DNA of 64,000 nucleotides from Candidatus Binatia bacterium (GTDB taxonomy: Bacteria > Desulfobacterota > Binatia > Bin18). This document shows positions 37,322 to 62,374 of this stretch, piece after piece. Position 1 is the stretch's first letter; each line of letters starts with the position of its first letter. The notes below the pieces were generated by a model, which had not been told where the DNA came from, made no database searches, and saw only the letters and a program-made list of their open reading frames with translations. The stretch is taken from positions 2,074,947 to 2,138,946 of the forward strand of contig OZ246888.1 of assembly GCA_965231775.1 (NCBI GenBank). The letters run 5' to 3'. Position numbers and translations under genes: made by a program.

Positions 37322-37326
37322 TACGG

Positions 37327-38469: not shown

Positions 38470-38517
38470 ATTGATAACACAGCACCCTGACCGGCTACGG
38501 TCAATCTTCAAAGTCGT

Positions 38518-39903: not shown

Positions 39904-39906
39904 TTG

Positions 39907-39960
39907 TCAGTCAAAAAGCGTTTTCGCGACCTCGTTGCCCGAGAGGTCACGGAGCAGCTT
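39907..39960 (-). pseudogene. Possible truncated hicA-like toxin remnant (17 codons, MKLLRDLSGNEVAKTLFD*) overlapping the hsdS start.
   Basis: Short ORF immediately 3' of the hicB-like gene. Its N-terminus resembles the HicA/YcfA start, but it ends in a stop just where hsdS begins. Confidence 0.2.
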
Positions 39961-40172: not shown

Positions 40173-40235
40173 CGAATAATCCTCCGTGTGCATCTCTGCA
40201 CGCGTCGCCCCTCCGATTGGCGTCGGCGCGCATGT

Positions 40236-42221
40236 TCATGACTTGCTGTTACCCCCGATGATCTCGTCCAACAACCCCTCCGTCTCTTGCTCCAGTGACA
40301 GAATATCCGCCCGGATGTCCGCTAGCGTCCGCAGGGGCTGCGGCTTGTAGAAGTAGCGGGTGAAGCTGATCTCGTAGCCGACCTTCACGTTGTCGGGCTG
40401 ATACCAGGCGTCAGAGGCGTAGGGCAGGACCTCGCGCTGTAGGAAGGCTTCGATCCCGCCCGCCTCTTGCAATGGAATCTGCTCGGTGTCGCGCAGGTCG
40501 GTGTCGGGCTCGTACTCCACCACGGCGGGTTTGCCGTTGATGGTGGTGGCGAACAGGCCACGTAACGAGTCAGCTTCCGTGCCTTTCTTGTGAAATTTCT
40601 TGATGACGGGTGGCGCGTCCTCGCTGCGCTCGCCGTTTTCTTTGAGCTTCTTGATCTCGGCAGCCTTGTAGGCGCGATTGGGGTCAGTGCCTTGGATACG
40701 CAGCGGTCGCTCGACCGTGACCTTCCAATAGCCGAAGGCGGCGTTGTCGAATATTTTGCTCTGCTGGCTCTCCTTGAAGTCAAGAAAGGTGTCGCAGATA
40801 CGAGCGATGTCTTCCTCTGACAGCTCACAGTTCTTCTTGCCCAGGTTCTTGCGCAAAGGCCGGTACCAGGTAGTAGCGTCGATCAACTGCACCTTGCCCC
40901 GGCGATGCGCGGGCTTGCGGTTGGTCAGCACCCAGACGTAGGTGGCGATGCCGGTGTTGTAGAACATATTGAGGGGCAGAGCGACGATGGCCTCCAGCCA
41001 GTCGTTCTCGATAATCCAGCGGCGGATATTGCTCTCGCCCTGCCCGGCGTCGCCGGTGAACAGCGAGCTACCGTTGTGCACCTCGGCGATGCGGCTGCCG
41101 AGCGGGGTGTCCTGCTTCATCTTGGAGAGCTTGTTGGCGAGAAAAAGCATCTGACCGTCGCTCGAACGGGTGACCAGCGAATACTCGGGGTCGCCGGCAT
41201 GTTCGATCACGAAGCGCGGGTCGCGCATGTCCTGCTTGCCGCCCATGCGCTCCAGGTCGGTCTTCCAGCTCTTGCCGTAGGGCGGGTTGGACAGCATGAA
41301 ATCGAACTCGCGGGCCGGGAAGGCATCGTTGGCCAGGGTGGAGTGTTCCGGGCCGCCCACGATGTTGTCGGCGGCTTCTCCCTCACCCTTGAGCAAGAGG
41401 TCGGCGGTGCAGATGGCGTAGGTCTCGGCGTTGATCTCCTGGCCGTAGAGATGGGTGGATACGTCCTTGTCGTACTCGGCGGCGAGTTGCCGCAGGGTGT
41501 CTTCGGCCACGGTCAGCATGCCGCCGGTGCCGTAAGCGCCGTCATAGAGCAGATAGGTGCCGGATTTGATTGCGTCGGCAATGGGTAGGAAAACGAGCCT
41601 GGCCATGAGGGTTACGGCGTCGCGCGGGGTCCAGTGTTCGCCGGCCTCCTCGTTGTTCTCCTCGTTGAAGCGGCGCACCAGCTCCTCGAAGATCGAACCC
41701 ATGCCGTGGTTGTCGAGGCCGGGGTGTTTGACCGAGCCGTCGGTGTTGAGGACCGGGGCTGGGCTCAGGTTGATATCGGGCGAGGTGAGCTTCTCGATCA
41801 GCGTGCCCAGGGCGTCGGCTTTGGACAGGCGCGTAATCTGGTTGCGAAACTCGAAGTTGTCGAGGATGTCCTGCACGTTGGGCGAGAACCCATTGAGGTA
41901 GTCTTCAAAGTCTGCCGTCAACTGCTGGCGATTGGCGCGGGCTCTGAGGTCGCGCAGGGTGAACTTGGAGGTGTTGTAGAACGCCTGGCCCGCGGCCTGG
42001 CGCAGGGCCGGGTCCTGTTCGACCACGCCCGCCGTATCGAGGCTGGCCCGCATGTCCAGGACGGCCTGCTTGCTGTCTTCCAGGACCGCATCCAGCCGGC
42101 GCAGTACGGTCATGGGCAGGATCACGTCGCGATACTTGCCACGCACGTACAGGTCGCGCAGCACGTCGTCGGCAATGCCCCAGATGTAGTTGGCAATCCA
42201 GTTCAGGTCGGTGGTGCTCAT
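40236..42221 (-). CDS. hsdM: Type I restriction-modification DNA methyltransferase (N6-adenine).
   Basis: FMLSNPPYGKSWK is the NPPY catalytic motif, and the N-terminal HsdM domain begins MSTTDLNWIANYIWGIADDVLR. The start is chosen at 42221; the track extends to 42431. Confidence 0.9.
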   Translation of the reverse strand: MSTTDLNWIANYIWGIADDVLRDLYVRGKYRDVILPMTVLRRLDAVLEDSKQAVLDMRASLDTAGVVEQDPALRQAAGQAFYNTSKFTLRDLRARANRQQLTADFEDYLNGFSPNVQDILDNFEFRNQITRLSKADALGTLIEKLTSPDINLSPAPVLNTDGSVKHPGLDNHGMGSIFEELVRRFNEENNEEAGEHWTPRDAVTLMARLVFLPIADAIKSGTYLLYDGAYGTGGMLTVAEDTLRQLAAEYDKDVSTHLYGQEINAETYAICTADLLLKGEGEAADNIVGGPEHSTLANDAFPAREFDFMLSNPPYGKSWKTDLERMGGKQDMRDPRFVIEHAGDPEYSLVTRSSDGQMLFLANKLSKMKQDTPLGSRIAEVHNGSSLFTGDAGQGESNIRRWIIENDWLEAIVALPLNMFYNTGIATYVWVLTNRKPAHRRGKVQLIDATTWYRPLRKNLGKKNCELSEEDIARICDTFLDFKESQQSKIFDNAAFGYWKVTVERPLRIQGTDPNRAYKAAEIKKLKENGERSEDAPPVIKKFHKKGTEADSLRGLFATTINGKPAVVEYEPDTDLRDTEQIPLQEAGGIEAFLQREVLPYASDAWYQPDNVKVGYEISFTRYFYKPQPLRTLADIRADILSLEQETEGLLDEIIGGNSKS

Positions 42222-42374
42222 CTTTTTGCGTATCCCTGAGGGGCCTGTAGCGGATATCACACGGAACGCAGGACACAACACTCCGGGCGTGTACCGAAGG
42301 GCAGAGGCGAGGCAGGGGCCTACGGAACAGAGGAGAGCCTTACGGATCGCGGGGCAGGCGTCAATCCCTGCTCT

Positions 42375-42540
42375 TATGTGGGTGTCGGCGAACCCACTCA
42401 TGCCGATGCCATCCTCGACCGGTTGGTGCACAACGCCTATCGCATCGAGCTGAGGGGCGAATCGATGCGAAAAATCAACGCCGGGAGAGGTAGACGACTC
42501 AAGGCCAAGGTTTTACTGTACGAAGGCTATGAGGGAGAAT
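42375..42540 (+). mobile_element. IS21-family istB C-terminal remnant (pseudogene fragment).
   Basis: Frame translation ...[43 protein letters not shown]...* matches the conserved IstB C-terminus (AILDRL..H....I.L.GeSyR). No N-terminal ATPase part or istA is present. Confidence 0.55.
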
Positions 42541-48786: not shown

Positions 48787-50028
48787 CTACTCCAACACCT
48801 CGGCAATCACTAACTCGGTGATCTTCTCCTCGTTATAGCCCAGAATATTCTCCAACACGTTCTGATTCTCACGTCCCAGCGTCGGGGCAGAGCGGTTAAT
48901 CTCCGCCGGGGTGCGGGAGAATTTGAAACGGCTGCCTTCGACGGTAGTCTTGCCGAAGTCGGGATGCTCCAGGTCTACAAAGTGCTCACGGTGCTGAAGC
49001 TGCTTGTCCTCGTACAATTCGTTTATGGTTTCGACTGCGCTGGCCGGAACGTTTTTGGCCTGGAGCTTTTCTTCGGCTTCATATGGGTTGAACTGGTTGC
49101 TCCAGGCGTTGATGGCTTTATCGATCTCGTCCTGATTGGCCAGCCGGCCTTTGACGGTGGCAAGACGCTCGTCACTGCCGAGGTCCGGGCGGTTCATGGT
49201 CTCGCACAGCGAGCGCCACTGGTCGTCGGTTTCCACGCCGATCGCTACCCAGCGATCCTCTCCTGCGGACGGATACACCCCGTGCGGGGCGAAGTTCATA
49301 TCCCGGTTGCCCATACGGGTCTGGGTCCGTCCGTTGACGGTTTGATCTAAAAGAAACGGCGCCAGAAAATGGAGGGCGGCTTCGGCCTGCGCCAGGTCAA
49401 TATGCTGGCCTTTGCCAGTCTGGTGCTTGTGTTCCAATGCCGCTAGCACGGCCGCGGCGTTATACCAGGGTGCAATATAGTCGGTGTAGGCACCGAATGG
49501 TCCAGCCGGCTCGCGGTCGGGCCAGCCGGTGGGATCGAAAAATCCTGAGACGGCGGCCGCCAGATTCCCAAACCCGGCGAAGTGAGAATGCGGCCCGGTC
49601 TGGCCCATCAGACAGGTGCTGAGCATGATGATGTCAGGCTTGATTTTTGTGAGCGACTCGTAGTCAAAGCCCCACTCCCGCATGGCTTTGGGAGAAAAGG
49701 ACTCGGTCACCACGTCGGCCCAGCGCACCAGGTCCAAAATGATGTCGCGCGACTCCGGTTTGGACAGATTCAGGGTCATCGGCAGTTTGCCCGTGTTCAT
49801 ATTATTGTACAAACCGGAGTTGTTCGGGCCGGGTTGCTTGTTTTGAAAAGGCCCGACCATGCGCACCGCGTCAAAACGGGTGGTGGATTCAACCCGCACG
49901 ACGGTCGCCCCGTAGTCGGCCAAAATACGCGTCGAGCCAGGGCCGGCCATGGCCCACATGAAATCGAGTACTTTGACCCCAGCCAGGGCTTGATTACTTT
50001 TACTGCCAGTCTGTTGTCCCTCTGCCAT
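48787..50028 (-). CDS. CoA transferase family III (CaiB/BaiF-like).
   Basis: LAGVKVLDFMWAMAGPGSTRILADYGATVVRVE N-terminus. 413 aa. Confidence 0.85.
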   Translation of the reverse strand: MAEGQQTGSKSNQALAGVKVLDFMWAMAGPGSTRILADYGATVVRVESTTRFDAVRMVGPFQNKQPGPNNSGLYNNMNTGKLPMTLNLSKPESRDIILDLVRWADVVTESFSPKAMREWGFDYESLTKIKPDIIMLSTCLMGQTGPHSHFAGFGNLAAAVSGFFDPTGWPDREPAGPFGAYTDYIAPWYNAAAVLAALEHKHQTGKGQHIDLAQAEAALHFLAPFLLDQTVNGRTQTRMGNRDMNFAPHGVYPSAGEDRWVAIGVETDDQWRSLCETMNRPDLGSDERLATVKGRLANQDEIDKAINAWSNQFNPYEAEEKLQAKNVPASAVETINELYEDKQLQHREHFVDLEHPDFGKTTVEGSRFKFSRTPAEINRSAPTLGRENQNVLENILGYNEEKITELVIAEVLE

Positions 50029-50054
50029 GGTTACTCCTCCTGAGTGAGTCTCGG

Positions 50055-51296
50055 TCAGATTATCCCTTTGTTTTGCAACTCTGCTAAGGCTTGGGCGTCA
50101 AGGCCGAGTTCGCCATAGACCTCGACATTGTGCTCACCAATCCTCGGCGGACGCCGCTTATAGTCAATCGGCTGCTCGCTGAACTTGGCAAACGGACCGG
50201 GATAAGCAAAGGCTTTGCCCATCTCCTCATGGTCAACCGCAGTCCAGTATTGACGCGACTCCAACTGCTCGCTTTCGACGACCTCGTCAATCGTGGTGAC
50301 CGGGGCGACAAGCAGGCCACGGTCCAGGGCGTTCCGGAACAGCTCTTCTTTGGTTTTGGTCTTGGTGAAATCTTCAACGATCAGTTTGAGGCGTTCATAG
50401 TCTTCAAGCGTTTTCGGGTCGCCACCAAACAGGCCGCCGCCCATATTAACCCAGTCCATCTGTTGGACTTCTTTGTCACAAAACCCCTCTTCATAGATCC
50501 AGTCCATCAGACGCTTGGTGAAATGGGCAAACGCCGAGCCAAACAGATAGGCAATCGAAACATGCCCGTCTTTCGCCGGCCAGAGCAGGCGGATTTCCAA
50601 CGGCCCCATTTTTGCTCCACCGGCCATCCGGCGGGTTTCCGCATCGTTGAGCGGAGCCGAGAGTATGGTTGACTGGGTTGCCTGGGCCGCCGCCTGCTGG
50701 GCGGAAATATCAATATGCTGACCGTGGTTTGAGCGGTGGGATTCGTACAGGGCAATCAGCGCGGCCGGCGCCGCCGCGGCGCTGGCGTGCAGATAGCCCT
50801 GGGGCAGGCTCAGGCGGACCGGCGGGCGGTCTTCGTCGCCGGTAATGACGAGCGGCCCGCTGCTGGCCAGAATAATCAGATCGCTGTCCGCATAGCTGGC
50901 TTTCGGGCCGTCTTGTCCAAAGGGGGTAATCGAGACATAAATCAGCCCCGGATTGTCCGCCGCTAACTCGTCATAGCTCAAGCCGTATTGGGCCAGGCTG
51001 CCGGGATTGTCCGATTCGATCAGAAATTTTGCGTCTCGTGCCAGACGCCGAAGAAGGCCCTGTCCTTCGGATTGCGTGATATCGAGCGTGACCCCCCGTT
51101 TATTGCGGTTATAGGCCCACCAGTAGAGCGAGTTCTCCGCATCTTCTTGATCCTGATAGAAGGGCCCCAGCTTGCGAGCCGAGGAGCCGCCGGGGGGCTC
51201 GATTTTAATCACGTCAGCGCCAAGATCGGCCAGGATTTGGCCACACAGCAGTCCGCGTTCTGTTGTCAGATCAAGAACTCGATAAGGGTTGAGCAT
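50055..51296 (-). CDS. CoA transferase family III (CaiB/BaiF-like), tandem paralog.
   Basis: YRVLDLTTERGLLCGQILADLGADVIKIE N-terminus. 413 aa. Confidence 0.85.
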   Translation of the reverse strand: MLNPYRVLDLTTERGLLCGQILADLGADVIKIEPPGGSSARKLGPFYQDQEDAENSLYWWAYNRNKRGVTLDITQSEGQGLLRRLARDAKFLIESDNPGSLAQYGLSYDELAADNPGLIYVSITPFGQDGPKASYADSDLIILASSGPLVITGDEDRPPVRLSLPQGYLHASAAAAPAALIALYESHRSNHGQHIDISAQQAAAQATQSTILSAPLNDAETRRMAGGAKMGPLEIRLLWPAKDGHVSIAYLFGSAFAHFTKRLMDWIYEEGFCDKEVQQMDWVNMGGGLFGGDPKTLEDYERLKLIVEDFTKTKTKEELFRNALDRGLLVAPVTTIDEVVESEQLESRQYWTAVDHEEMGKAFAYPGPFAKFSEQPIDYKRRPPRIGEHNVEVYGELGLDAQALAELQNKGII

Positions 51297-51661: not shown

Positions 51662-52122
51662 TCAGGGGGCAGGAAGCTCCTCGACCGGCTCCTTACGGCT
51701 GTCAACATAGGCCTTCATGAGTCCTGGCAGGTCAATAGGCGACTCTGTCTCTCTGAGCTCGCCGCCGGGCGGGATAATTGTATCCGACCCGCCAAGCGAG
51801 ATCAGGACATAGGGGCCGCCGAGCAAACCCTTGGTGTGAACGGACGCGATCGCGTCTTCCTGAAGCTCAATATCACTGTCTATGGTCAGGCGGACTCTCG
51901 CCCGCGTGCCCGTGAGCTGGACGCTATCAACCCGGCCGACGCGGACACCGGCGATCTCGACAGGGGTGCCCGGCCCCAGGCCGGTGGCACTTTCAAAGTC
52001 GGCATAGATGGTATACCCCCAGGCGTTATACAGCACGGTTTCTCCGAGTGAAGAGAACAGATAGAAGGCGCTTGCGGTTCCAAGAATCAGGAAACCCACG
52101 ACGCTGAGGACGATCCGTTGCA
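51662..52122 (-). CDS. mlaD: MlaD/MCE-family protein.
   Basis: An N-terminal TM helix followed by GLGPGTPVEIAGVRVGRVDSVQL, the MCE-domain signature. The start is at MQRIVL; the track starts at 52180. Confidence 0.7.
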
Positions 52123-52208
52123 TGGCCTGGCAGCCTAGCAGACCACCCCTTATCTCCCAAGACCCTCCACCCATTCTCATGGCAGGTCACACGGCTCTAC
52201 AAGAGGAT

Positions 52209-53114
52209 ATGAAAAACGCGGGCGAGGAGAGCGCTTTGCGACTTTTTTGTCTTTTTGTTCTCTGTAGCCTTTTATTCGGCCATCTCCAAAAGGCCTGGGC
52301 CGATAATACCGCTTTGGTCGCCCAGGGACAGTATGTCTTTGCCTTAGCCGGCGGGTGTGGCTGCCATACGGCGGACAAGGGGCCCACCAACGCAGGCGGG
52401 CGGCCGATTGAAACCCCTTATGGACGGTTTTACGGGACGAATATTACGCCCGACCCGGTCCACGGTATTGGGACCTGGACGGACCGGGAAATCATCGACG
52501 CCATCCGGCTGGGGGTGAAACCCGATGGGACGGTCATGAGTCCGGTCATGCCATACCCGGCCCTGAGCGGCATGACGGATGAAGATGTCACGGCGTTGGT
52601 GGCTTTCCTGCGCAGCCGTGAGTCCGTCGCGCAGGAAAATCTTCCCCACGAGGTCTCTATTCCGTTTTCCGGGCTTGCCATGCGTGTCTGGCGCTGGCTG
52701 TTCTTTGAACCGGTTGAAACTCAGGCAACAGCCTGGGCGGAGCCCATTGCCCGAGGCCGCTACATCAGCGAACATCTCGCCCATTGCCAAGAGTGCCATA
52801 CGCCGCGCACGGTGTTTGGCACTCTCGACCGGACGCGTGATCTCGCCGGGAATCCGGCCGGCATTGACGGTGAGGTCGCGCCCAATATTACCCCGGATGA
52901 CGAGACGGGTATCGGACAGTGGAGTGAGGGAGATATCGTTTCCCTGCTACGTACCGGCTTTCTCCCGAATTTTGATAATGTCCAGGGGCTGATGGCGGTA
53001 GTGATTGATGGGGTGCCCGGAGGCGGGTACAAAGACATGACGGATGAAGACGCCCATGCTGTTGCCGCATATCTGAAATCGGTTGTTCCAAGGAGGCAGG
53101 CAGAATCGGAATAG
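52209..53114 (+). CDS. Diheme c-type cytochrome.
   Basis: Signal peptide and two CxxCH motifs (GGCGCH, CQECH). AAGAGGA precedes the ATG at 52209. The track starts at 52122. Confidence 0.75.
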   Translation: MKNAGEESALRLFCLFVLCSLLFGHLQKAWADNTALVAQGQYVFALAGGCGCHTADKGPTNAGGRPIETPYGRFYGTNITPDPVHGIGTWTDREIIDAIRLGVKPDGTVMSPVMPYPALSGMTDEDVTALVAFLRSRESVAQENLPHEVSIPFSGLAMRVWRWLFFEPVETQATAWAEPIARGRYISEHLAHCQECHTPRTVFGTLDRTRDLAGNPAGIDGEVAPNITPDDETGIGQWSEGDIVSLLRTGFLPNFDNVQGLMAVVIDGVPGGGYKDMTDEDAHAVAAYLKSVVPRRQAESE

Positions 53115-53145: not shown

Positions 53146-53643
53146 ATGAAAGGGATGGTTATCCGTGTGGTTCGTGGGGTTTTGATCAGCGTTAGTGTGA
53201 TGGCAGGGGGGCTGCATACTATGGGTGGGCTGAGTTTTGGGCATGAAAACCACCCCACCCAGATGCCGGACCCGCAGCAGACGGTGGCGTTTCGCACCTA
53301 TCTGATGGAGAATATCGGAGCCAATGCCAAGGAGATGAAAGGCAAGATTGATGCCGGTAAGCTCTCAGAGGCAAAAATGAATGCGGCCGCCATAGCCCTT
53401 CATTCCACCCGCATCGCGGCACTCTTTCCTGAGGGCAGCACGTCGGACGCCTCTCGGGCGAAAGAGGAAATTTGGCAAACCTGGGACGCTTTTCTTGCCT
53501 CAGCCACAGAGTTGAGTACGGAAGCGAACGCGCTGACTATGGCTGCGGGAGAAGATAATGCCGCCTCAGTCAAAGAACATATGCAAAAGATGTTCGGGAC
53601 GTGCAAAGGCTGTCACGACCAGTTTCGCAAGCCGGAAGAATAA
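53146..53643 (+). CDS. Cytochrome c'-like (class II cytochrome c) protein.
   Basis: Signal peptide, a four-helix-bundle-like length (165 aa), and a single C-terminal CKGCH heme motif. Confidence 0.7.
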   Translation: MKGMVIRVVRGVLISVSVMAGGLHTMGGLSFGHENHPTQMPDPQQTVAFRTYLMENIGANAKEMKGKIDAGKLSEAKMNAAAIALHSTRIAALFPEGSTSDASRAKEEIWQTWDAFLASATELSTEANALTMAAGEDNAASVKEHMQKMFGTCKGCHDQFRKPEE

Positions 53644-53726: not shown

Positions 53727-55016
53727 GTGTCCGGTGCTGTTGGGTTCCAAGCGCTGACAAGCCGTAATGCCGTGCTGAGCAGCGCAGAAAATTTCATCCT
53801 GTACCTGCTCATGGAGACCAAGCCGCAGGGTGGGGGCGTGCGCCTGCCGCTCAATCTTGGCATTGTCCTTGACCGTAGCGGTTCCATGTATGACGAACAG
53901 CGGCTTGATCACGTCATCGAGGCCATCAAATATCTGATCGATAATCTTGGTCCGGATGACAAGGCGGCGGTGATCGCGTTTGCCGATCGGGCAGAAGTTG
54001 CGGCAACGGCAGACCGGGTCGCGACTGATGCCGCCGGGGTGAAACGGGCCATTGACGATCTCGATCTCCTGGAGATTGGGGGCGGGACACAAATGGCGCT
54101 GGGCATGGAAGCGGCGCTTACCGAGGTGGAGAAGCATTATTCGCCGAACCGCCTGAACCGGCTGCTGCTCCTGACCGACGGCCAGACGTATGAGGAGCGC
54201 AAATGTCTGGAACTCGCCCGTCAACACCGGGAGCGCATTTCGTGCAGTACGCTTGGGGTGGGGATTGAGTTCAATGAAAAATTACTGATGGAAATGGCCG
54301 AGGAGAGTGGCGCCAATTATCACTTTATCGATACCCCGACCTCCATTCCGAATATTTTTTCCAGTGAACTTCAGGGACTGCGGAACGTCGTCCTGACCAA
54401 CGCGCGTATTGAGATGCAACTCAGCGCCGGGGTGCAGGTGAAAGAAGCCTTTCGCGCCAGTCCTCAGATTTACCCCATAAAAGAGATTACGCCCGACGCT
54501 AACCGGACGCTTTCCCTGTCGTTGGGAGATATTGAAGCCGGAACGCCAAGCTCAGCATTAGCCGTACTCGTCTTGCCGCCCCGCCGACCCGGCCGGGTGC
54601 GGCTGGCGCGAGCCGAGCTATATTACGATACGCCCGAGGCTAAGAACCAGCACGAAAGCGTGGACGTGGTGGTGAATTATACGCTTGAGCGCTCGGAGCT
54701 TGGCCAGGCAAACGGCTATGTGATGAATCTGGTCGATCAAGTCAGTGTCGCCAAGATTCAGATGCAGGCTGAGGCAGCTATGGCTGCCGGCAACACGGAT
54801 AAGGCCACGCGATTATTGGGTAATGCCATAGCCGGCACGCAACGCCTGGGGAATACGAAAGCAACCCAAGCGCTGGAGGGGCTCCAGAGTGAGTTGAAGA
54901 AGACCCAGAGTCTTGCGACCGGGGCTGCCAAGACCCAGTTGCTGAGCGCTCAGGCAACCCTCCGAAAAACGCAGCAGCTTGATCCTGAAAGCGTCAAGGA
55001 TGCGCTCCGGGATTAA
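53727..55016 (+). CDS. VWA domain protein (TerY-like).
   Basis: LDRSGSM MIDAS motif, LLTDGQ, and a coiled C-terminal half. Confidence 0.8.
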   Translation: MSGAVGFQALTSRNAVLSSAENFILYLLMETKPQGGGVRLPLNLGIVLDRSGSMYDEQRLDHVIEAIKYLIDNLGPDDKAAVIAFADRAEVAATADRVATDAAGVKRAIDDLDLLEIGGGTQMALGMEAALTEVEKHYSPNRLNRLLLLTDGQTYEERKCLELARQHRERISCSTLGVGIEFNEKLLMEMAEESGANYHFIDTPTSIPNIFSSELQGLRNVVLTNARIEMQLSAGVQVKEAFRASPQIYPIKEITPDANRTLSLSLGDIEAGTPSSALAVLVLPPRRPGRVRLARAELYYDTPEAKNQHESVDVVVNYTLERSELGQANGYVMNLVDQVSVAKIQMQAEAAMAAGNTDKATRLLGNAIAGTQRLGNTKATQALEGLQSELKKTQSLATGAAKTQLLSAQATLRKTQQLDPESVKDALRD

Positions 55017-55054
55017 GCTCCACCACAGATGCAGCCCATGAAGGAGATGAGAGC

Positions 55055-55708
55055 ATGATTCGCTGTGCGGAATGCAATGAAGAAAATGTGGATGGCCTGG
55101 AGTACTGTGATAGCTGCGGAGCGAAACTCGAAGTGATAGCGACGGAAGCCGCGGCCGCCGATGCTCCCGACAGCCCAGCCGCAGAGGAGGCTCCCGCCGA
55201 AATTGAGGCAAGTACGGAGACCGCGGCAGAAGAAGCCACGTCTGAGCCTGCTGAGACTGAGACCGCTGAAGCTAAAGGCGAGGAGAGTGCGGAGGTGGCT
55301 GGGGATGAGCCCACGGAGACGGCGGTAGAAGAAGCCGTGCCTGAAGCCGCTGCTCTCAGCGAGGAACAGGCGGCGGTCGGTAGCGCTGCGCTCACCATCA
55401 CCCGTGGTGGCACGGTGGGAAAAGTCTTTGAGCTCCAAGCCGGAGACAATCTGGTTGGTCGGTGGGACCCGGATTCCGGTTCTTTTCCTGAAGTCGATAT
55501 GGAAAACGATGATCCGGAAGCGCGCATCTCCCGCAAACACGCGCTGATAAAGTTCGGGACCGAGTTGACGATTGAAGATATCGGGAGTCTGAACGGGACG
55601 TTTGTCAACCGGGGACAACGTCTTGAGCCAGGCTCGCCCGCCCCCCTCAAGGATGGAGACGAGATCATCATAGGCAAAACCTTCTTTAAGGTGTCGCGCG
55701 TGCAATGA
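55055..55708 (+). CDS. Zinc-ribbon + acidic linker + FHA domain protein.
   Basis: N-terminal CAECN...CDSCG. The C-terminal FHA reads GRWDPD...ISRKHALIKF...SLNGTFVN. Confidence 0.8.
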   Translation: MIRCAECNEENVDGLEYCDSCGAKLEVIATEAAAADAPDSPAAEEAPAEIEASTETAAEEATSEPAETETAEAKGEESAEVAGDEPTETAVEEAVPEAAALSEEQAAVGSAALTITRGGTVGKVFELQAGDNLVGRWDPDSGSFPEVDMENDDPEARISRKHALIKFGTELTIEDIGSLNGTFVNRGQRLEPGSPAPLKDGDEIIIGKTFFKVSRVQ

Positions 55709-55767
55709 GGCTGCGCTGGCCGTTCTGGAAGTGGCGAAACTGAGCACCCTGAGTGGACTGGTGATGC

Positions 55768-57474
55768 ATGGCTTCTGCACCGCTGATGACCGAACAGAGA
55801 GACCTTGAGGAGAGCTGTGTTTGTGTCGAGTGCGGACAGGCCAATATCGTCGGCGAAACTTTTTGTACCGCCTGTGGCGTAGCGCTTGAAGAAGCAGGTG
55901 AGAGGGAGTCGGTCCCCCCTCTCGAACCGCTGCCAATCGGCACCGTTCTGGCTGATAGCTATCGTCTGACCACCCTCCTCTCGACTGGACAGGAAAATCG
56001 TTACCGGGCGGTTTGTCAGACTGACGAAGACCGGCCCTACCTCGTAGCGGAACGGTCAAACGACCAGACCGATACCCATCCGAGTGGCGCGTTTCGGTTG
56101 TCCGAACAGCTTGCCGAGATTCATCATCCGGCCCTGATTCTCCCCCAAGAACGTTTTGAACGTGGCGGCCGGGTCTATCTCATGACGCCGAGTCAGTCCG
56201 GTCTCCCGCTGAGTCAGCGCATTGGCCGGACATCGGAGCGGGAGGCGGCCGGCTGGGGAGTCCAGTTATGCCAGGCCGTGGATGTTTTGCACCGGCATGG
56301 ACTCTTATGTGTCGAACTGCCTCCGGAAAATATCCTGCTCGACAAGACGGGCCGGTTGCACCTCACCCAATTCGATGCGATCCGTCTCAGAGACACGGTT
56401 GAGGAGCATCCCGTGTTGACAGACGGCTATGCTGCGCCCGAGGCATACAAGGCCCAGGTATTAAATGAAGCCGCCGATGTGTTTGCACTCGGCGCCTGCC
56501 TGTATGCCGTGCTGGTGGGGCGGCGCTTGCCCGTTGAGGGCTGGGCGGTTCAGCCTGAGCCACCCGTCTTCTATCCTGAGAAAGTTCTGACTCCTGAGTG
56601 TGAGCGCATTTTAAGCAGAGCGTTGGCCCTTGAGCCTACGGAGCGCTATGCGGACTTGGAAGCGCTGAAACATGATCTGCTTGCGCTGAGCCAATCCATG
56701 CATATCCGTTCGGCCTGGCGGACCGATGTCGGACAGGTGCGCGACCATAACGAGGATGCCGTTCTGGTCAAAGAGGTCGGGCAGGGCAGTATAGCCGGCG
56801 ATGATTTTCGGGGGCTGTATATTGTGTCAGACGGGATGGGTGGGGCCGAAGCCGGTGAGGTCGCGAGCCAGATTGCCATCCAGACAGTAGCGCGCCAAGT
56901 CGAAGCAGCCTGGGCCGAGAGTGAGGCGGAAGAGGAAGTGGACGCTGCCGCCTGGGAGAGCTGTTTGCGTGAGGCGGTTGCGGCGGCCAATGCCCGGATA
57001 GTCCAATACGGAAAAGATCACCCCGAGTCGGCCGGCCTAGGGGCCACGATCGTGGCCGCGTTGATCCAGGCGGGACAACTGGCGCTGGCCTGGGTCGGGG
57101 ACAGTCGGGTCTATCTGCTGGAAAACGGAGTGTTGCACCAGCTCTCGCACGATCATTCCCTGGTCGCCCGGCTGGTCGAAATCGGCCAACTGACGGAAGA
57201 AGAGGCATTGACTCACGAGCACCGCAACGTCCTGATTCGGTCCTTGGGCAGCAAGGAAAACGTAAAGGTTGATACGCTCTCGCGACTGCTGAAGCGCGGC
57301 GTCCGCCTCCTCCTGTGCAGCGATGGGCTGACCAGCCATGTGCTTGATCCGGCGATCGCCGATATTATGAGTCGCCACCGGACTCCGCACGAGGCCGCCT
57401 TGGAACTGACTGTCGCGGCCAATACCGCGGGCGGCAGCGATAATACCTCGGTGGTTGTTGTCTTCCACGAGTAG
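55768..57474 (+). CDS. Zinc-ribbon + kinase-like (predicted pseudokinase) + PP2C Ser/Thr phosphatase fusion.
   Basis: CVECGQ...CTACG ribbon. The kinase-like domain has the HRDLKPEN catalytic loop replaced by LLCVELPPEN and the DFG motif replaced by TQFD. The C-terminal PP2C motifs are VSDGMGG, GATIVAA and CSDGL. Confidence 0.8.
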   Translation: MASAPLMTEQRDLEESCVCVECGQANIVGETFCTACGVALEEAGERESVPPLEPLPIGTVLADSYRLTTLLSTGQENRYRAVCQTDEDRPYLVAERSNDQTDTHPSGAFRLSEQLAEIHHPALILPQERFERGGRVYLMTPSQSGLPLSQRIGRTSEREAAGWGVQLCQAVDVLHRHGLLCVELPPENILLDKTGRLHLTQFDAIRLRDTVEEHPVLTDGYAAPEAYKAQVLNEAADVFALGACLYAVLVGRRLPVEGWAVQPEPPVFYPEKVLTPECERILSRALALEPTERYADLEALKHDLLALSQSMHIRSAWRTDVGQVRDHNEDAVLVKEVGQGSIAGDDFRGLYIVSDGMGGAEAGEVASQIAIQTVARQVEAAWAESEAEEEVDAAAWESCLREAVAAANARIVQYGKDHPESAGLGATIVAALIQAGQLALAWVGDSRVYLLENGVLHQLSHDHSLVARLVEIGQLTEEEALTHEHRNVLIRSLGSKENVKVDTLSRLLKRGVRLLLCSDGLTSHVLDPAIADIMSRHRTPHEAALELTVAANTAGGSDNTSVVVVFHE

Positions 57475-57487
57475 CGAGGCATTGTCG

Positions 57488-59863
57488 ATGTCACGGAATG
57501 AAAGCGGTCAGCTCGAACCCGGAACGGTCCTGGCTGGCCGGTATCAGATTGAGCGTTTTCTGGCGGGCGGCGGGATGGGCGTCGTCTATGTTGCCCAGGA
57601 TCAGCGGCTGGCTGAGCGACAGGTCGCCATCAAAGAAATTTTTGACCGGTTTACGAATCCCGAAGAACGCGCCCAGGCCATCGAGTATTTTCATCGCGAG
57701 GCCGACACGCTGGCCCAACTCACCCATCCGGCCATTCCCGCCATTTTTGATCGTTTCGGTGAGGGCAATTGCCATTATCTGGTGATGGATTTTGTCGAAG
57801 GGGTCAATCTGGAACAGGAAATCGCCGGCCTGGGCGGTCGGCTCCCCGAGAGCCGGGTCATCGAGATTGGCCGGGAACTGTGCGACGTGTTGACCTATCT
57901 GCATGGCTTTTCTCCGCCCATCATCTATCGGGACATGAAACCGGGCAATGTGATCCTCCGGCCGGACGGGCGCATCACGCTGATTGACTTCGGCATTGCC
58001 AGAATTTTCTCTCCCCAGGGTAAAGCCACCCTGATTGGCACGCCTGGATTTGCCCCGCCCGAGCAATACTCGGGACAGGTCGATGAACGGTCCGATCTTT
58101 ATGGCCTGGCGGCAACCCTGCACTATATCCTGACCGGTCGTGACCCGGAGAAGCACCCGCCGTTCTCGTGTCCGCCGGTGCTTTCGGAGAAGCCTGACGC
58201 GGCGCCTTTCCTGGCCCAGGCGGTTGACCAAGCCCTGGCGTATAAAGCGGAAGAGCGGCCTCAGAGCGCGGAAGCGTTCAAGGATATGTTTCTGTACGGG
58301 CGTGGACTGGGTGCGGCTCCCCAGCCCGGCTCGTCCCAAGCCGCGACCCAAATCCTGGAGCCTTTGGCGGCGCCGCTTGAGGAGTCCCTCACGGCCGAGC
58401 CGCCGCACAAGAAACGGCGCTGGGGGCGGATGCTGGCCAGCCTTGTTTTTTTGCTGCTGCTGACTGGCGGGGCATATGGACTGTTCACCTCTCCCGAGCT
58501 GCTGCAGGGCAATCCGGTCGCGCGTGTGGGAGAAAAGATTCCGTGGCAGCAGATTGAAACCTGGCTGCCGGAATCTCGGCGGGCCGGGTTTCGGGCGTTT
58601 GTTGCGGAGTTACCCTGGGAGCGGGAGAAACGCCTGCGCGCCCTGCGGGCTGAGCCGCTCGAATTGGTTTCTCTCAACCTGCTGAATACCTCGCGCGACG
58701 GCACGCCACTGTCGGAGGTCAAGGACAGCTATACGCTGGGTGAGGTGCAATATCTGACCTGGGAAGTGGTGCTGAAAAACAAGCTGTTTGAGGTCGAGGG
58801 CGGGCAGCATCGGCTGGAAGGCCGCTTTTTCGACCCTGAGGGCGGCCTGGCCGGGAAAAGCGAAGCCGGCCGGTTTGTCCGGCCCGAAGAGGAACAGCTT
58901 GAGCTGCGGGGCGTGACCCTGCTTGAGGGGCTCAAGGAGCGGGCGACGGGTGATTATCAGCTTGAGCTCTACCTGGGAGATGCCAAGCTGGCCAGTCAGA
59001 CGGTCCGGATAGAGGCCGACCCGGTCCAGGTCGCAAAAGCCGAGGTGGTAGAAGAAAAGGAAGGCGGTGTCGCTGGTAGGGCCGATGTCCCGGCAGTTAT
59101 TGGACCGACACCGGAGGAAGAGCGCGCCCGGCGTGTGACAGAGGAAAAACGGCTGACCCTCATCCAGGAACGGAGCAAGGAACCGCTTTCTCTGGTCTCC
59201 GTCCGCTTTTTCAATACGGCAAAAAATGGTGACCCTTTATCCAAGCCGGCGACCTCGTTTGGTGCATCACAACTCCGCTACCTGGCCTGGGAGGCAGATT
59301 TTCAGAACCAACTCCACGAGCTGTTGCCCTCTCACCACCGGGTCACCGCAACCTATTTTGCCCCGAATGGTCAGATTCTTGGGACGGTCGAAGACGGAAA
59401 AGAAGTTTCGGATAAAACAGAGAAGGTGACGTTTACCGCCAGAATCGGCAATGCCAGTGGGGGCGCCTTTCTCCCAGGCGACTATCGGGTTGACTTTTAT
59501 GTCAACGGCTACCCGCTCTCGTCCAGAAAATTCAGCGTCAGGGATGATCGGGACTTGGCCTATATCCTCACCTCGCACCAGGGGAGTATCCTCGGGCTCG
59601 GTCCTGAGCGTGAGGTTCCCTTTGAGGTGCATTTTCAACCGCATAGTAATGGGATGTTGCGCGGTAGTCTGGTGATTCACGCGCGCGGATTCGGTCCAGC
59701 CTCCCTAGAAGGAAGCCTACAGGATAATCACATTGCCTTTCAAAGTCAGATTGGCAATCGCGTTTATCATTTCCAGGGCTGGCGTGAAGAGAATCGGCTC
59801 AGCGGAACCTATCGTGTCGGGTCGTCCGAGGATGTGAGCGGAAATTGGTCACTGCAACTCTAG
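57488..59863 (+). CDS. Hanks-type Ser/Thr protein kinase with a TM segment and a large extracytoplasmic beta-rich domain.
   Basis: GGGMGVVYVA...VAIKE (VAIK), IYRDMKPGNVIL, DFGIA and GTPGFAPPE, followed by a TM helix (MLASLVFLLLLTGGAYGLF). The track starts at 57455. Confidence 0.8.
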   Translation: MSRNESGQLEPGTVLAGRYQIERFLAGGGMGVVYVAQDQRLAERQVAIKEIFDRFTNPEERAQAIEYFHREADTLAQLTHPAIPAIFDRFGEGNCHYLVMDFVEGVNLEQEIAGLGGRLPESRVIEIGRELCDVLTYLHGFSPPIIYRDMKPGNVILRPDGRITLIDFGIARIFSPQGKATLIGTPGFAPPEQYSGQVDERSDLYGLAATLHYILTGRDPEKHPPFSCPPVLSEKPDAAPFLAQAVDQALAYKAEERPQSAEAFKDMFLYGRGLGAAPQPGSSQAATQILEPLAAPLEESLTAEPPHKKRRWGRMLASLVFLLLLTGGAYGLFTSPELLQGNPVARVGEKIPWQQIETWLPESRRAGFRAFVAELPWEREKRLRALRAEPLELVSLNLLNTSRDGTPLSEVKDSYTLGEVQYLTWEVVLKNKLFEVEGGQHRLEGRFFDPEGGLAGKSEAGRFVRPEEEQLELRGVTLLEGLKERATGDYQLELYLGDAKLASQTVRIEADPVQVAKAEVVEEKEGGVAGRADVPAVIGPTPEEERARRVTEEKRLTLIQERSKEPLSLVSVRFFNTAKNGDPLSKPATSFGASQLRYLAWEADFQNQLHELLPSHHRVTATYFAPNGQILGTVEDGKEVSDKTEKVTFTARIGNASGGAFLPGDYRVDFYVNGYPLSSRKFSVRDDRDLAYILTSHQGSILGLGPEREVPFEVHFQPHSNGMLRGSLVIHARGFGPASLEGSLQDNHIAFQSQIGNRVYHFQGWREENRLSGTYRVGSSEDVSGNWSLQL

Positions 59864-59928
59864 GCCGGGCTATGATGGCGGCTGTTGGTATAAACATAGG
59901 GCATTGAGCAGACTTTAAGCGGAGCAGT

Positions 59929-60786
59929 ATGGAACTTTCACGCGAACGACTTGTCCTGTATAGCGGGGCCGGGCTTCTGGGCGGTCTTGCCGGCTGGGCC
60001 GCAGCCGACCCTCTGGCCGCAGTGGGGAATGTCTATCTCCGAGCTATGGGCCTGGGAGGAGTGACTGGTATTTGTGTTGGTGCGTTTATAGGGGCCATTG
60101 AAGGGCTCAGTGCCGGGCATAAGAACAAGACTTGGCAGGGCGTGAAGCTGGGCGGACTTGCCGGTCTGGTGGGCGGGACGATTGGCCTCCTTATGGGAGA
60201 GTTGGTGTACGGTCAGGTAGGTGGTCTTGGTGGGCGCGTTATCGGCTGGGGAATGTTTGGGCTTGCCGTCGGGCTCGGAGCCGGCGGGGTCGGCCAATCG
60301 TTAGTCCGTTTACGCAACGGCGCGATTGGCGGTTGCATCGGCGGGGCCATCGGGGGCGCGCTCTTTCAGTTGGCCACCTCCCTCTTTTCGCAGACGGCTG
60401 GCCGTGGGGTTGCCCTGGCCATCTTGGGAGCGATGATTGGTCTCTGGATCGGTCTGGTCAGTGAGATATTGAAGCGCGGCTGGTTTATGGTGATTCGCTC
60501 GCAAAGCCGCAATGCCCGCGAGGGCCGTGAATATCATCTGACCAAGCCTAAAACTACAATCGGTCGAGCCGAAGAAAGTGATGTCGGCCTGTTTGGCGAC
60601 CGCTCCATTGCCAACTTGCACGCGGTGATCGAAAAACACAAAAACACCTTCGTGCTTGCCAAAAACGAAGGACAGGTCAGCGTCAACCGGACTCCGGTCA
60701 CTCAGCCCGTCCAACTGAAAAATGGCGACCGGGTGGAGGTCGGCGGAACCTTACTCCTCTTTCGAGAGCGTGCCGGGAAAGAATAG
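59929..60786 (+). CDS. Glycine-zipper membrane protein with a C-terminal FHA domain.
   Basis: Multiple GxxxG-rich hydrophobic segments. The C-terminal FHA reads TTIGRAEESDV...NLHAVI...VNRTPV. Confidence 0.75.
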   Translation: MELSRERLVLYSGAGLLGGLAGWAAADPLAAVGNVYLRAMGLGGVTGICVGAFIGAIEGLSAGHKNKTWQGVKLGGLAGLVGGTIGLLMGELVYGQVGGLGGRVIGWGMFGLAVGLGAGGVGQSLVRLRNGAIGGCIGGAIGGALFQLATSLFSQTAGRGVALAILGAMIGLWIGLVSEILKRGWFMVIRSQSRNAREGREYHLTKPKTTIGRAEESDVGLFGDRSIANLHAVIEKHKNTFVLAKNEGQVSVNRTPVTQPVQLKNGDRVEVGGTLLLFRERAGKE

Positions 60787-60808
60787 GCAGGCCGGAGAGT
60801 GAGGTCAG

Positions 60809-62374
60809 GTGGAGAGTAGTATGAGATTGAAAGCCCGTTCCTCTCGGCAGAGCGTGACCCAAGCTGTGCGTGCGTTCCTCTATTGCCTGGCCTTCTGCTC
60901 GTTTCTGGCATCTCATGTCGTTGCGGCAGATTCAGTAGTTGTCTCTGTCACCAACCCCCAACTGGAGAATTTTACCAATGGCGGCGCGGTTGGCCTGTAT
61001 TTTAGTGCGACCGATTTACGCGGGCAGCCGATCGGACAACTCACGCCGGAGCATGTGACTGTGCAGGAGGACGGGCAGGACACCCAGATCATTGATTTCC
61101 GAGGCGAAGAACAGGGCCGGCCGGTTGATATCGTGGTGGTCTTCGATGTCACGGAAAGCATGGGGCCGTTCATTGACGGTATGAAAGAAGCGGCCATTGA
61201 TTTTGCCGACCGTCTGGCCAAGGCCAATCGGGATTATCGTTTGGGCTTGGTTACTTTTGAGGATTACGTGATTCGGGACGAGCGGGAATTCACCCGGAGC
61301 GCCCGCGAGTTCAAAAGCTGGATTGGTGCCCTGCGCCCGGCAGGCGGGGGGGATATTCCGGAGAACTCGCTCGATGCCATGTTGCTGGCCAGCCGCTTTC
61401 CGTTTCGGCCCGATGCCCAAGCTGTTCTCATCCTGATTACCGATGCTCCCAATCATACGCGCGGGGACGGCTCGGAAAAAACGAATCCCTACGGTCGAGA
61501 GGTCACCCAACTGTCGGGCGCGGAAGTATTGGCGGAAATCAAAAAGGCAAATCTGAACGTCTATGCGATCTCTCCCCCGCCCTTTATGGCTCCCGACTTG
61601 CAGCGGATCGCAAAGGAGAGCGCCGGGCGACATTACAATATTGTCAGTGAGGGAGAACGTTTTCCTGAGCTGATCGGCGAGATCGGCCGCTCGCTGGCGT
61701 CGCAATACTTCCTGACCTATACCAGTCCCCGCCCGGTCGAGGACGGGGCGGAACGGGCAGTCGTGCTGACCCTTCAGCATCCGAACGGAGAAGGGGAGGC
61801 GCGCGTATCCTATCAGGTGCGTGGGATTGGCGGTGCGCGAGTCGTCTCAAGCAGCTCAGGGTCGGGCACCACCCACCCGCAAACCCTTATTGCCTATGGG
61901 GTGTGGAATATGCTGGTTCCGCTCTTAGCCGCCGGAGGGCTGCTGCTGCTGGCGCGCGTCCGGCTTAACGAAATCCCAGCCGAAGTGCTGAGTCTGGTGA
62001 CGACGGCAACCCGTAAACCCGCTTCCACAGGCCCAAACTCAGCCCCAAACCCTGTTGTGCCGAAGAATTCTGCGCCGTACGCCCGACTTGTGCGCCAAAG
62101 CCCGTTTGAAGACGCGCCGCGCGAAATTGCTTTTTCCCGCGATGAAATGACGATTGGTCGTGGAGAGGAATGTGAGGCGATTATTCTCCACTCCTCCATA
62201 TCGCGCGAACATGCACGCATAAAAAAAGTCAAGCAGGGCTATGTGCTGCTCGATTTGCAGAGCCGAAACGGCATCCACATCAATGGTAAAAAGGTTGCCG
62301 AAAATCTTCTCAGAGATGGCATGCAGGTCCGTATCGGCGACGTGGAGTTTATCTTCTGCGCCGCCAATACGTGA
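60809..62374 (+). CDS. Secreted VWA domain + TM + C-terminal FHA protein.
   Basis: Signal peptide, the VWA segment VVVFDVTESM...LITDAPNH, a TM helix (MLVPLLAAGGLLLLA), and an FHA (MTIGRGEECEAIILHSSISREHARI). Confidence 0.8.
   Translation: MESSMRLKARSSRQSVTQAVRAFLYCLAFCSFLASHVVAADSVVVSVTNPQLENFTNGGAVGLYFSATDLRGQPIGQLTPEHVTVQEDGQDTQIIDFRGEEQGRPVDIVVVFDVTESMGPFIDGMKEAAIDFADRLAKANRDYRLGLVTFEDYVIRDEREFTRSAREFKSWIGALRPAGGGDIPENSLDAMLLASRFPFRPDAQAVLILITDAPNHTRGDGSEKTNPYGREVTQLSGAEVLAEIKKANLNVYAISPPPFMAPDLQRIAKESAGRHYNIVSEGERFPELIGEIGRSLASQYFLTYTSPRPVEDGAERAVVLTLQHPNGEGEARVSYQVRGIGGARVVSSSSGSGTTHPQTLIAYGVWNMLVPLLAAGGLLLLARVRLNEIPAEVLSLVTTATRKPASTGPNSAPNPVVPKNSAPYARLVRQSPFEDAPREIAFSRDEMTIGRGEECEAIILHSSISREHARIKKVKQGYVLLDLQSRNGIHINGKKVAENLLRDGMQVRIGDVEFIFCAANT

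Follow-up and report, generated by a model that had tools for sequence, protein, structure and literature searches.

The stretch of DNA analysed here, which we call the window, is a segment of 64,000 nucleotides from a Candidatus Binatia bacterium (contig OZ246888.1 of assembly GCA_965231775.1, positions 2,074,947 to 2,138,946). Our subject is a run of six co-directional genes on its + strand, named g1 to g6, at window positions 53727-62374. A preliminary description, made from the letters of the DNA, had presented them as a Ser/Thr phospho-signalling cluster with VWA, PP2C and kinase domains and three FHA domains, and had likened them to the TerY-P triad. We checked the coordinates of the open reading frames (ORFs) and searched the products against Pfam, accepting the claimed domains above the gathering score. 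The six ORFs lie where they had been placed, each domain passed, and this content supports a role in Ser/Thr phospho-signalling. The genes are as follows (aa, amino acids):

53727-55016, + strand: g1, 429 aa, cytoplasmic ArnB-like VWA protein (Pfam VWA, 66 bits)
55055-55708, + strand: g2, 217 aa, zinc ribbon plus FHA (Pfam FHA, 54 bits)
55768-57474, + strand: g3, 568 aa, zinc ribbon-pseudokinase-PP2C (Pfam Pkinase, 68 bits; PP2C, 53-59 bits)
57488-59863, + strand: g4, 791 aa, receptor Hanks Ser/Thr kinase (Pfam Pkinase, 104 bits)
59929-60786, + strand: g5, Gly-rich polytopic membrane protein with FHA (Pfam FHA, 40 bits; Yop-YscD_cpl, 42 bits)
60809-62374, + strand: g6, signal peptide-VWA-transmembrane segment-FHA (Pfam VWA, 44 bits; FHA, 56 bits)

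The gene proposed for g4 is kept with a different start: public annotations begin it at ATG 57488 (791 aa, P0121), not at TTG 57455, from which the frame is also open. Hydropathy analysis placed no transmembrane segment in g1 or g2; in g3 it gave weak hydrophobic stretches only, all within the folded kinase-like and PP2C domains, and we do not read these as membrane-spanning.

The ArnB-like protein g1 and its partners

The first gene encodes a bacterial homologue of archaeal ArnB. We modelled g1 with AlphaFold2 from 18 orthologues (predicted local distance difference test score, pLDDT, 76; predicted TM-score, pTM, 0.68). In the model, a VWA domain with an intact MIDAS (metal-ion-dependent adhesion site) splits a beta-sandwich, and a helical domain follows at the C terminus. 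The MIDAS residues are invariant in the 18 orthologues. The parts of g1 are:

aa 5-33 and 221-319: split beta-sandwich (AlphaFold2 model)
aa 42-219: VWA domain, MIDAS D49, S51, S53, T121, D151
aa 330-428: C-terminal helical domain (AlphaFold2 model)
54807-54980 of the window, + strand: Thr-rich tail, T361-R-L-L and five T-Q-x-L (T371, T380, T393, T403, T415)

This is the tripartite architecture of ArnB, which together with ArnA forms a motility-repression module in Sulfolobus acidocaldarius, with PP2A as its phosphatase (PMC6509490, PMC12852372). A Foldseek search of the PDB with the g1 model ranked a VWA protein from Catenulispora first (4fx5, E 1.7e-23) and also returned ArnB from the Sulfolobus ArnAB complex (8s05, chains A and B; E ~1e-21, TM-score 0.68-0.77 over ~415 columns) and 5a8j, the ArnB paralogue ArnE/vWA2 (E 1e-19); ITIH1 and Sec23/24 ranked below these three. 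A sequence profile of the g1 family matched ArnB at E 2.2e-10, pairing profile positions 2-390 with ArnB residues 2-376, the tail included.

The preliminary description read the domains correctly; what it overlooked is the T-Q-x-L tail of g1, a predicted phospho-acceptor. All six tail threonines and the leucine at +3 of each are invariant across the 18 orthologues, which share 58-90% identity. Shuffling the whole protein produced five TQx[LIMV] motifs in 4 of 200,000 trials, and shuffling the tail did so in 0 of 200,000. In ArnB, the C-terminal helical domain holds all mapped phospho-threonines (T343/344, T353/354, T359/363 and 371-375); two Hanks kinases, ArnC and ArnD, phosphorylate the tail threonines, to which ArnA then binds through its FHA domain (PMC6509490). 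A HMMER alignment pairs T361, T371 and T380 of g1 with T344, T354 and T363 of ArnB (residues 346, 356 and 365 of the PDB chain, corrected for a two-residue tag offset). Two of these g1 threonines stand in T-Q-x-L (T371, T380) and one in T-R-L-L (T361); the ArnB motif, T-R-R/K-I, has an aliphatic residue at +3, as in g1. FHA domains classically prefer phosphothreonine with Leu or Ile at +3, and TQ is a preferred acceptor of PknB-type kinases.

Such tails are found throughout the family. A search of 1.84 billion representatives with the C-terminal half of g1 retrieved 248 clusters, for the most part of 410-470 aa. In 95 full-length members, Txx[LIM] occurs 4.5 times per 100 aa in the last 100 residues, versus 0.88 in the rest of the protein. 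DRA0331 of Deinococcus radiodurans, the corresponding VWA protein of Nostoc, and homologues from Chloroflexota and Armatimonadota have TxxL tails as well; these tails are a hallmark of the g1 family. As in ArnB, a cluster of threonines thus lies in the C-terminal helical domain of g1, six of them in invariant TxxL motifs. Their phosphorylation is itself a prediction, and the tail is a putative multi-site phospho-acceptor and FHA-docking platform.

The adjoining gene, g2, has the layout of ArnA, which consists of a zinc finger and an FHA domain and docks constitutively on the ArnB beta-sandwich through the zinc finger (PMC12852372; PDB 8s05). Its parts are:

aa 4-21: zinc ribbon, CX2CX10CX2C (C4, C7, C18, C21)
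between ribbon and FHA: acidic, low-complexity linker
aa 117-215: FHA domain with canonical GR, SxxH and NG motifs

Zinc-ribbon families scored sub-threshold in Pfam, with the four cysteines plainly visible, and the cysteine spacing (x2, x10, x2) is that of C21, C24, C35 and C38 in ArnA (PMC12852372). Searched against PDB sequences, g2 matched GarA at 7e-10 and ArnA (5a8i) at 1e-6, through its FHA part only. With a four-cysteine ribbon at the N terminus and a canonical FHA domain at the C terminus, g2 is a putative ArnA/FraH-like reader of ArnA architecture. In Binatia, Chloroflexota, Armatimonadota and Nostoc, the VWA gene of the g1 type always has a g2-type gene beside it; Deinococcus has the kinase gene in between.

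The third protein joins a second zinc ribbon to a kinase-like domain and a phosphatase domain:

aa 19-36: zinc ribbon, CX2CX10CX2C (C-x-E-C-x3-N-x2-G-x3-C-x2-C-G)
~aa 55-305: pseudokinase, the Pkinase match being limited to profile positions 43-261
aa 319-565: PP2C (NCBIfam Stp1/IreP, 230 bits)

In an alignment with g4, the Gly-rich loop and the beta3 Lys are missing from g3; CVELPPEN replaces HRDxKxxN and QFD replaces DFG, while APE is retained. These degenerate kinase motifs are kept in 12 orthologues, and the metal-binding motifs of the PP2C domain are all invariant. The two patterns identify g3 as a pseudokinase fused to a PP2C phosphatase whose activity is predicted, and the pseudokinase call of the preliminary description is upheld. 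The CX2CX10CX2C type of ribbon is common to g2 and g3, and it occurs at the N terminus of the Deinococcus and Nostoc kinases too.

The kinase motifs VAIK, RD and DFG are intact in g4, and hydropathy places one transmembrane segment at aa 314-335, followed by a C-terminal ectodomain of 456 aa; its earlier designation as an active Hanks kinase with a large extracytoplasmic domain agrees with these features, activity being predicted from the motifs. The ectodomain consists of two beta-sandwiches and an avidin-like eight-stranded barrel. Its fold matches (avidin-like barrel, sugar-binding-type sandwiches) are of a generic kind and point to no ligand. On the cytoplasmic side, a juxtamembrane T287-Q-I-L is conserved. 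The NCBIfam model PknB_PASTA_kin gave 176 bits against a cutoff of 450.

Two membrane FHA proteins complete the cluster, with these parts:

g5, aa ~10-182: membrane part with several Gly-rich hydrophobic segments (hydropathy)
g5, aa 198-280 (window 60520-60768): divergent C-terminal cytoplasmic FHA domain
g6, N terminus: signal-like segment, then a periplasmic beta-sandwich
g6, aa 107-288: periplasmic VWA domain, integrin-beta-like
g6, aa 360-387: transmembrane segment (hydropathy)
g6, aa 448-510: canonical cytoplasmic FHA domain

The Gly-rich segments and the Pfam FHA match fit the earlier description of g5 as a membrane FHA protein; likewise, that of g6 as a secreted VWA-transmembrane-FHA protein accords with its signal-like segment, its transmembrane segment, and VWA and FHA scores above the gathering score. 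The model TIGR03436 gave 61 bits on g6, under its cutoff. In the FHA domain of g5, GR is kept, [ST]-V-x-x-x-H-A replaces SxxH, and E/G-G replaces NG, a pattern conserved in orthologues. g5 is present in all Binatia loci, those of the Binataceae included, and is strongly conserved and syntenic.

A metagenomic protein, P0186 (L086 405-2390), may link g6 and g4 in the Rosetta-stone sense. In it, a transmembrane segment and periplasmic VWA of the g6 type are fused to the second sandwich and the barrel of the g4 ectodomain. Its gene adjoins a HicA toxin gene and a gene for a zinc-ribbon membrane protein. This fusion, on a single 4-kb contig, hints that the periplasmic parts of g4 and g6 work together.

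Relatives in other genomes and known systems

The preliminary description had proposed neighbourhood conservation as a check. The nearest locus (L006) lies on a chromosome labelled "uncultured Candidatus Binatia bacterium", with g3 at 93% identity. In relatives at 56-93% identity in g3, which bear mixed submitter labels (Binatia, Methylomirabilota and "Deltaproteobacteria"), the six-gene order is kept, as are an upstream cytochrome c, a cytochrome c' and a divergent MlaD gene. The core five genes, g1 to g5, occur in the same order throughout Candidatus Binatia, down to 44% identity and in varied genomic contexts. Since relatives at 44-93% identity retain the gene order, the arrangement is beyond chance. 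Within the cluster g1 is the most conserved protein, with 76-77% identity where g3 has 56-61%.

The Binataceae (17 loci, Binatus soli among them, at ~44-47% identity) show a different layout, namely, g1, g2, an extra cytoplasmic serine/threonine kinase (STK)-FHA fusion, g3, g4 and g5. The extra protein, encoded between g2 and g3, has 576 aa (L017 8258-9988) and may be a functional replacement of g6, which is absent from the cluster in this family and is found in order-level relatives of the window (L001-L009, L033). The cytochrome genes are also absent there, and the flanks are thiolase and 6-phosphogluconate dehydrogenase/glucose-6-phosphate dehydrogenase/fructose-bisphosphatase genes. Therefore, the five-gene core is the unit, g6 is a lineage-specific accessory, and the cytochromes reflect local synteny.

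The two cytochrome genes of the window are:

52122-53114, + strand: cytochrome c, 330 aa, upstream of g1
53146-53643, + strand: cytochrome c' (PF01322), 83 bp upstream of g1

Their position, on the same strand and close to g1, and their retention down to 56% identity in g3 would suit a redox- or nitric oxide-responsive unit of at least eight genes in this lineage. Yet the cytochromes are absent at the cluster in Binataceae, Deinococcus, Nostoc, Chloroflexota and Armatimonadota. Moreover, the divergent MlaD gene and farther neighbours are kept in the same loci, so the cytochromes look like ordinary lineage synteny. We rejected them as members of the module and regard such coupling as improbable.

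Outside Binatia, a tblastn search of plasmid records with g1 returned full-length matches in Deinococcus and Nostocales. In D. radiodurans, the order DRA0331-DRA0334 is VWA, STK, zinc ribbon/FHA, PP2C; on a conjugative plasmid of Nostoc linckia, it is VWA-FHA-PP2C-STK. By BLASTP, g1 matches DRA0331 at E 2.5e-25 over aa 13-418, and MTQRLGN..MTQAL is common to both tails; the tail of DRA0331 reads MTQRLGNGAMTQAL...KTISL..KTLKI..KTQTL. g3 matches DRA0334 at E 8e-31 (g3 aa 82-565, 29% identity) and the Nostoc PP2C protein at E 3e-32, the kinase-like part being included in both alignments, and g4 matches DRA0332 at E 7e-34. The Deinococcus quartet also has a zinc ribbon-linker-FHA protein. All four quartet proteins are thus homologous and encoded together in both settings: the Binatia cluster is an expanded quartet of the DRA0331-0334 type, the core of which is homologous to archaeal ArnA/ArnB.

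The expansion is considerable, and the earlier remark that this instance is unusually elaborate was fair, for the conserved quartet is joined by two FHA proteins of the membrane and by a VWA domain in the periplasm. Gene order differs from that of DRA0331-DRA0334, and in Binatia there are six genes. In Deinococcus and Nostoc, the kinase has an N-terminal zinc ribbon and no large ectodomain, and neither the Gly-rich membrane FHA protein nor the VWA-transmembrane-FHA protein is present in those systems. Simpler versions occur in Chloroflexaceae and Oscillochloris (zinc ribbon-PP2C, X-PP2C, a g1-like VWA protein and a double zinc ribbon-FHA protein) and in Armatimonadota (VWA, FHA, PP2C, STK).

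In D. radiodurans, DRA0334 is a Mn-dependent PP2C phosphatase and counteracts the FHA protein DRA0333 on kinases; the preprint names DRA0332 TM-STPK and DRA0333 a FraH-like FHA protein, and the vWA protein was not analysed there (10.64898/2026.01.23.701218). The N-terminal region of DRA0334 (L088 10724-12574), which the same preprint calls "KI-FHA", aligns with the pseudokinase domain of g3; its catalytic loop is degenerate, and it contains "GLTAPE", which is APE-like. Judging from this alignment, the region may be a pseudokinase and not FHA.

The TerY-P system named in the preliminary description consists of a TerY-like VWA protein, a PP2C phosphatase and an STK with a C-terminal zinc ribbon or OB fold, and is linked to restriction or DNA processing (Anantharaman et al. 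2012, summarised in PMC11090510 and PMC4978471). We took as a reference the canonical locus of plasmid R478 (L091), which encodes TerY1-3, a PP2C protein and a kinase. The likeness lies in the trio of VWA, PP2C and Hanks-type kinase, in zinc ribbons somewhere in the system, and in a presumed phospho-switch on the VWA protein. A specific relationship did not emerge: in BLASTP against an 11-sequence database, g1 matched TerY1, TerY2 and TerY3 at E 0.079, 1.2 and 0.10, and against the R478 proteins g3 matched the PP2C at E 0.29 and g4 the kinase at E 0.39, none of them significant. TerY1 and TerY2 are bare VWA domains of 212 aa and TerY3 adds TerY_C, so that the tripartite g1 is not a TerY-like protein. 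In TerY-P the kinase is cytoplasmic, whereas g4 is a transmembrane receptor that ends in the beta-rich ectodomain and has no C-terminal zinc ribbon or OB fold, the zinc ribbons of the cluster being on g2 and g3. A PP2C gene is present in both operons, without g3 being specifically related to the R478 enzyme, and TerY-P has no FHA proteins.

A strict TerY-P triad, a phospho-switch that senses metals or stress or acts against phages and works with DNA-processing or restriction systems, would be compatible with the shared trio, with the quartet on a conjugative Nostoc plasmid, with a type I restriction-modification/AAA_21 island ~11-22 kb upstream in the window, and with some Binataceae g1 orthologues that pass the Pfam vWA-TerF-like model (34 bits). 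The BLASTP values and the architectures of g1 and g4 speak against it. Beside the cluster lie genes for cytochromes, MlaD, CoA-transferases and a TPR protein, not ter, restriction, DNA-processing or mobile genes; the cluster shows synteny and vertical conservation in its housekeeping surroundings; a scan of viral contigs with the g1 alignment found no relatives; and the defence island upstream is an insertion of its own, adjoining ssrA. We consider membership of this kind very improbable. The results suggest that g1, g3 and g4 fall outside the TerY-P clades; as judged by these comparisons, the earlier TerY-P label is sound as an analogy in composition and probably in general logic, and the cluster is not a member of that system.

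Some other indications on TerY-P affinity were set aside. The six proteins gave only generic kinase and PP2C matches in PADLOC, and PF10138 was negative as well; these negatives were dropped as uninformative because authentic TerY proteins miss those models too, the R478 VWA and PP2C proteins matching neither any PADLOC model nor PF10138, and the R478 kinase matching only generic kinase models. The Pfam vWA-TerF-like model is invalid as a TerY test, since authentic TerY proteins do not match it. Finally, the top enterobacterial plasmid match of g1 is not a TerY protein and was rejected as such; it is YfbK on a chromosome-like record.

As a separate observation, several Binatia-like loci (L002 246-1331, L004 3204-4292) have a gene for a DUF4236 protein upstream of the cluster, at a distance of a few kb, and a DUF4236 protein is also encoded within the R478 ter/TerY-P locus (L091 18413-19621).

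A predicted phosphothreonine switch

We think it fairly probable that the cluster is a self-contained phosphothreonine switch, built around a homologue of the ArnB/ArnA pair and orthologous to quartets of the DRA0331-DRA0334 type. In the mechanism that we propose, the g4 ectodomain would sense an extracytoplasmic cue and the kinase would autophosphorylate, the juxtamembrane T-Q-I-L included. It would also phosphorylate the multiple TQxL threonines in the helical tail of g1. By analogy with ArnA on ArnB, g2 would already be docked on the beta-sandwich of g1 through its zinc ribbon, and its FHA domain could then clamp the pThr-x-x-Leu sites, switching the conformation of the complex. The FHA domains of g5 and g6 might read the same phosphothreonines on g1 or on the kinase, which would tether or cluster the complex at the membrane and couple it to the periplasmic VWA of g6. 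Finally, g3, targeted by its own zinc ribbon, its pseudokinase domain or both, would reset the switch.

Several features of this mechanism parallel the Arn network: the tripartite fold of g1, repeated T-x-x-[I/L] tail threonines that align with the ArnB phosphosites, an ArnA-type zinc ribbon and canonical FHA domain encoded by the adjoining gene, and Hanks-type kinases as writers. Others differ. The Binatia system is bacterial, and its kinase and phosphatase genes lie within the same operon; the kinase is a transmembrane receptor; the eraser is a PP2C domain fused to a pseudokinase and a zinc ribbon, whereas that of Arn is PP2A; and g5 and g6 are additional, bringing two FHA proteins of the membrane and a VWA domain in the periplasm. 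The tail motif is TQxL in Binatia versus TTRRI in ArnB, and the output in Binatia cannot be an archaellum.

A number of points weigh against the proposed switch. Pfam ArnB_C gave no match to g1 at E<=0.01, which leaves the likeness to ArnB to the profile-versus-sequence and fold comparisons. The similarity of g2 to ArnA is limited to the FHA domain and is weaker than that to GarA, and the g2 ribbon alone found no significant match to the ArnA zinc finger among PDB sequences, because it is too short a query. The helical prediction for the g1 tail is of low confidence (pLDDT <50 beyond aa 395), and since the tail is predicted to be helical at all, its TxxL periodicity could be partly structural. 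The FHA domain of g5 lacks the canonical phosphothreonine-contact residues in the standard register of the orthologue alignment; its phosphopeptide binding may be altered or lost. Sericytochromatia encode a zinc ribbon-STK-PBP protein, a pseudokinase-PP2C and a zinc ribbon-FHA protein, with no VWA gene at tblastn E<=1e-6; therefore, the VWA protein is not obligatory for the enzyme trio. The unit holds no effector or transcription factor gene, and its flanks differ between families.

Alternatively, the cluster may mainly regulate an envelope machine encoded elsewhere (secretion, pilus, cell wall or division), with the VWA proteins as adaptors and not key substrates, on the model of PpkA/PppA/Fha1 in the type VI secretion system (T6SS) or of the actinobacterial PknB/PstP/FhaA/FhaB. 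The T6SS pathway has a transmembrane Hanks kinase, a PP2C phosphatase and an FHA reader, as here, and its periplasm-exposed VWA, the counterpart of that in g6, belongs to the kinase itself, whereas in Binatia the two are separate proteins. The T6SS threonine phosphorylation pathway is not known to have a cytoplasmic ArnB-like VWA protein. In Binatia, g5 and g6 anchor two of the three FHA domains in the membrane, and weak sub-threshold NCBIfam matches to FhaB/FipA, TagH, GltG and CglD were found. The replacement of g6 by a cytoplasmic STK-FHA protein in Binataceae implies that the membrane modules are exchangeable accessories, which would also suit a regulator of this sort. Yet all NCBIfam matches are far under their cutoffs (TIGR03354 VI_FHA, 29-34 bits versus 120; FhaB_Rv0019c, 23-45 bits versus 125). 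No T6SS genes were seen in the annotated neighbourhoods, where not every window gene was scanned, and no pilus, PASTA, RodA or penicillin-binding protein genes were seen beside the cluster, in the window or in related loci. In addition, g1 is the most conserved protein of the cluster, which argues that it is central and not accessory. We regard this alternative as unlikely in itself; regulation of an envelope machine is compatible with the phosphothreonine switch as its output.

The Gly-rich segments of g5 raise another alternative, a conflict or abortive-infection system in which a Gly-zipper protein serves as a pore-forming effector gated by phosphorylation. In CoCoNuT-type systems, Gly-zipper modules are membrane-perturbing effectors beside VWA genes (PMC11090510); the quartet is plasmid-borne in Nostocales, and P0186 adjoins a HicA toxin gene. 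However, the strong conservation and synteny of g5 across Binatia differ from the fast turnover of defence genes, and the cluster itself lies outside defence islands in the window and in all examined Binatia loci. The absence of viral relatives of g1 points the same way, as does, more weakly, the lack of a PADLOC match for g5. There is in our judgement only a slight chance that the cluster is such a system.

A wider interpretation is that ArnA/ArnB are one instance of an ancient pan-prokaryotic design, in which a tripartite VWA scaffold, with a tail of multiple TxxL sites as phospho-hub, is combined with a short zinc ribbon as portable docking tag and an FHA domain that reads pT-x-x-L, and that in Binatia this core has been extended to a trans-envelope device. 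We hold this to be possible, if rather doubtful. If it is true, the CX2CX10CX2C ribbon would bring a reader (FHA), an eraser (PP2C) or a writer (kinase) onto the VWA scaffold; the periplasmic VWA of g6 and the g4 ectodomain would cooperate in the trans-envelope device, in line with the P0186 fusion; and the zinc ribbon on TerY-P kinases would be explained as well.

Clusters of Hanks kinase, PP2C and FHA genes are common in bacteria, and their substrates are mostly not known. This operon appears to encode its own substrate, namely, g1, with an invariant TQxL tail that aligns with the mapped phospho-threonines of ArnB. The relations among writer, substrate, reader and eraser are thereby testable with four to six recombinant proteins. 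The main gain is the identification of this probable substrate and docking tail; no new kind of biochemistry is involved, and Binatia are an uncultured lineage. Our comparison also joins the archaeal Arn network, Deinococcus DRA0331-0334 and cyanobacterial FraH-type proteins, a link not found in the literature searched, and it suggests that small zinc ribbons are general docking tags on VWA scaffolds.

Other features of the window

A scan for promoters and terminators over 51.5-64 kb gave counts not above those in shuffled sequence. Further upstream, the window holds the following features:

48787-51296, - strand: two tandem CoA-transferase family III paralogues, 413 aa each
40236-42431: large ORF of 731 aa, no family given
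38518-39903: type I restriction-modification specificity subunit
37327-38511: M78/IrrE-like peptidase
33742-36747: large ORF of 1001 aa, no family given
31655-32009: transfer-messenger RNA (tmRNA) gene, ssrA (Rfam, 176 bits), tag peptide ADDFDYALAA
31130-31600: ORF of 156 aa, candidate SmpB

The 156-aa ORF agrees in size and position with the SmpB genes of related loci and is a candidate only; ssrA follows it directly. Immediately 3' of ssrA lies a probable genomic island (~32040-42431), which includes the peptidase, the specificity subunit and the two large ORFs, together with an AAA_21/AAA_15 (AbiEii-like) ATPase and a 210-aa partner of low GC content at third codon positions (GC3, 0.47-0.50). 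A search for an att-like repeat of the tmRNA 3' end, made to delimit the island, found no exact copy of >=16 nucleotides downstream. The signalling cluster does not belong to this island. A second region of deviating composition, at 3958-6875, has a GC content of 0.43, versus ~0.59 for the window, and a GC3 of 0.38-0.43. Its ORFs of 284 and 487 aa have no Pfam match, and a 129-aa ORF is also present; this region is probably foreign DNA.

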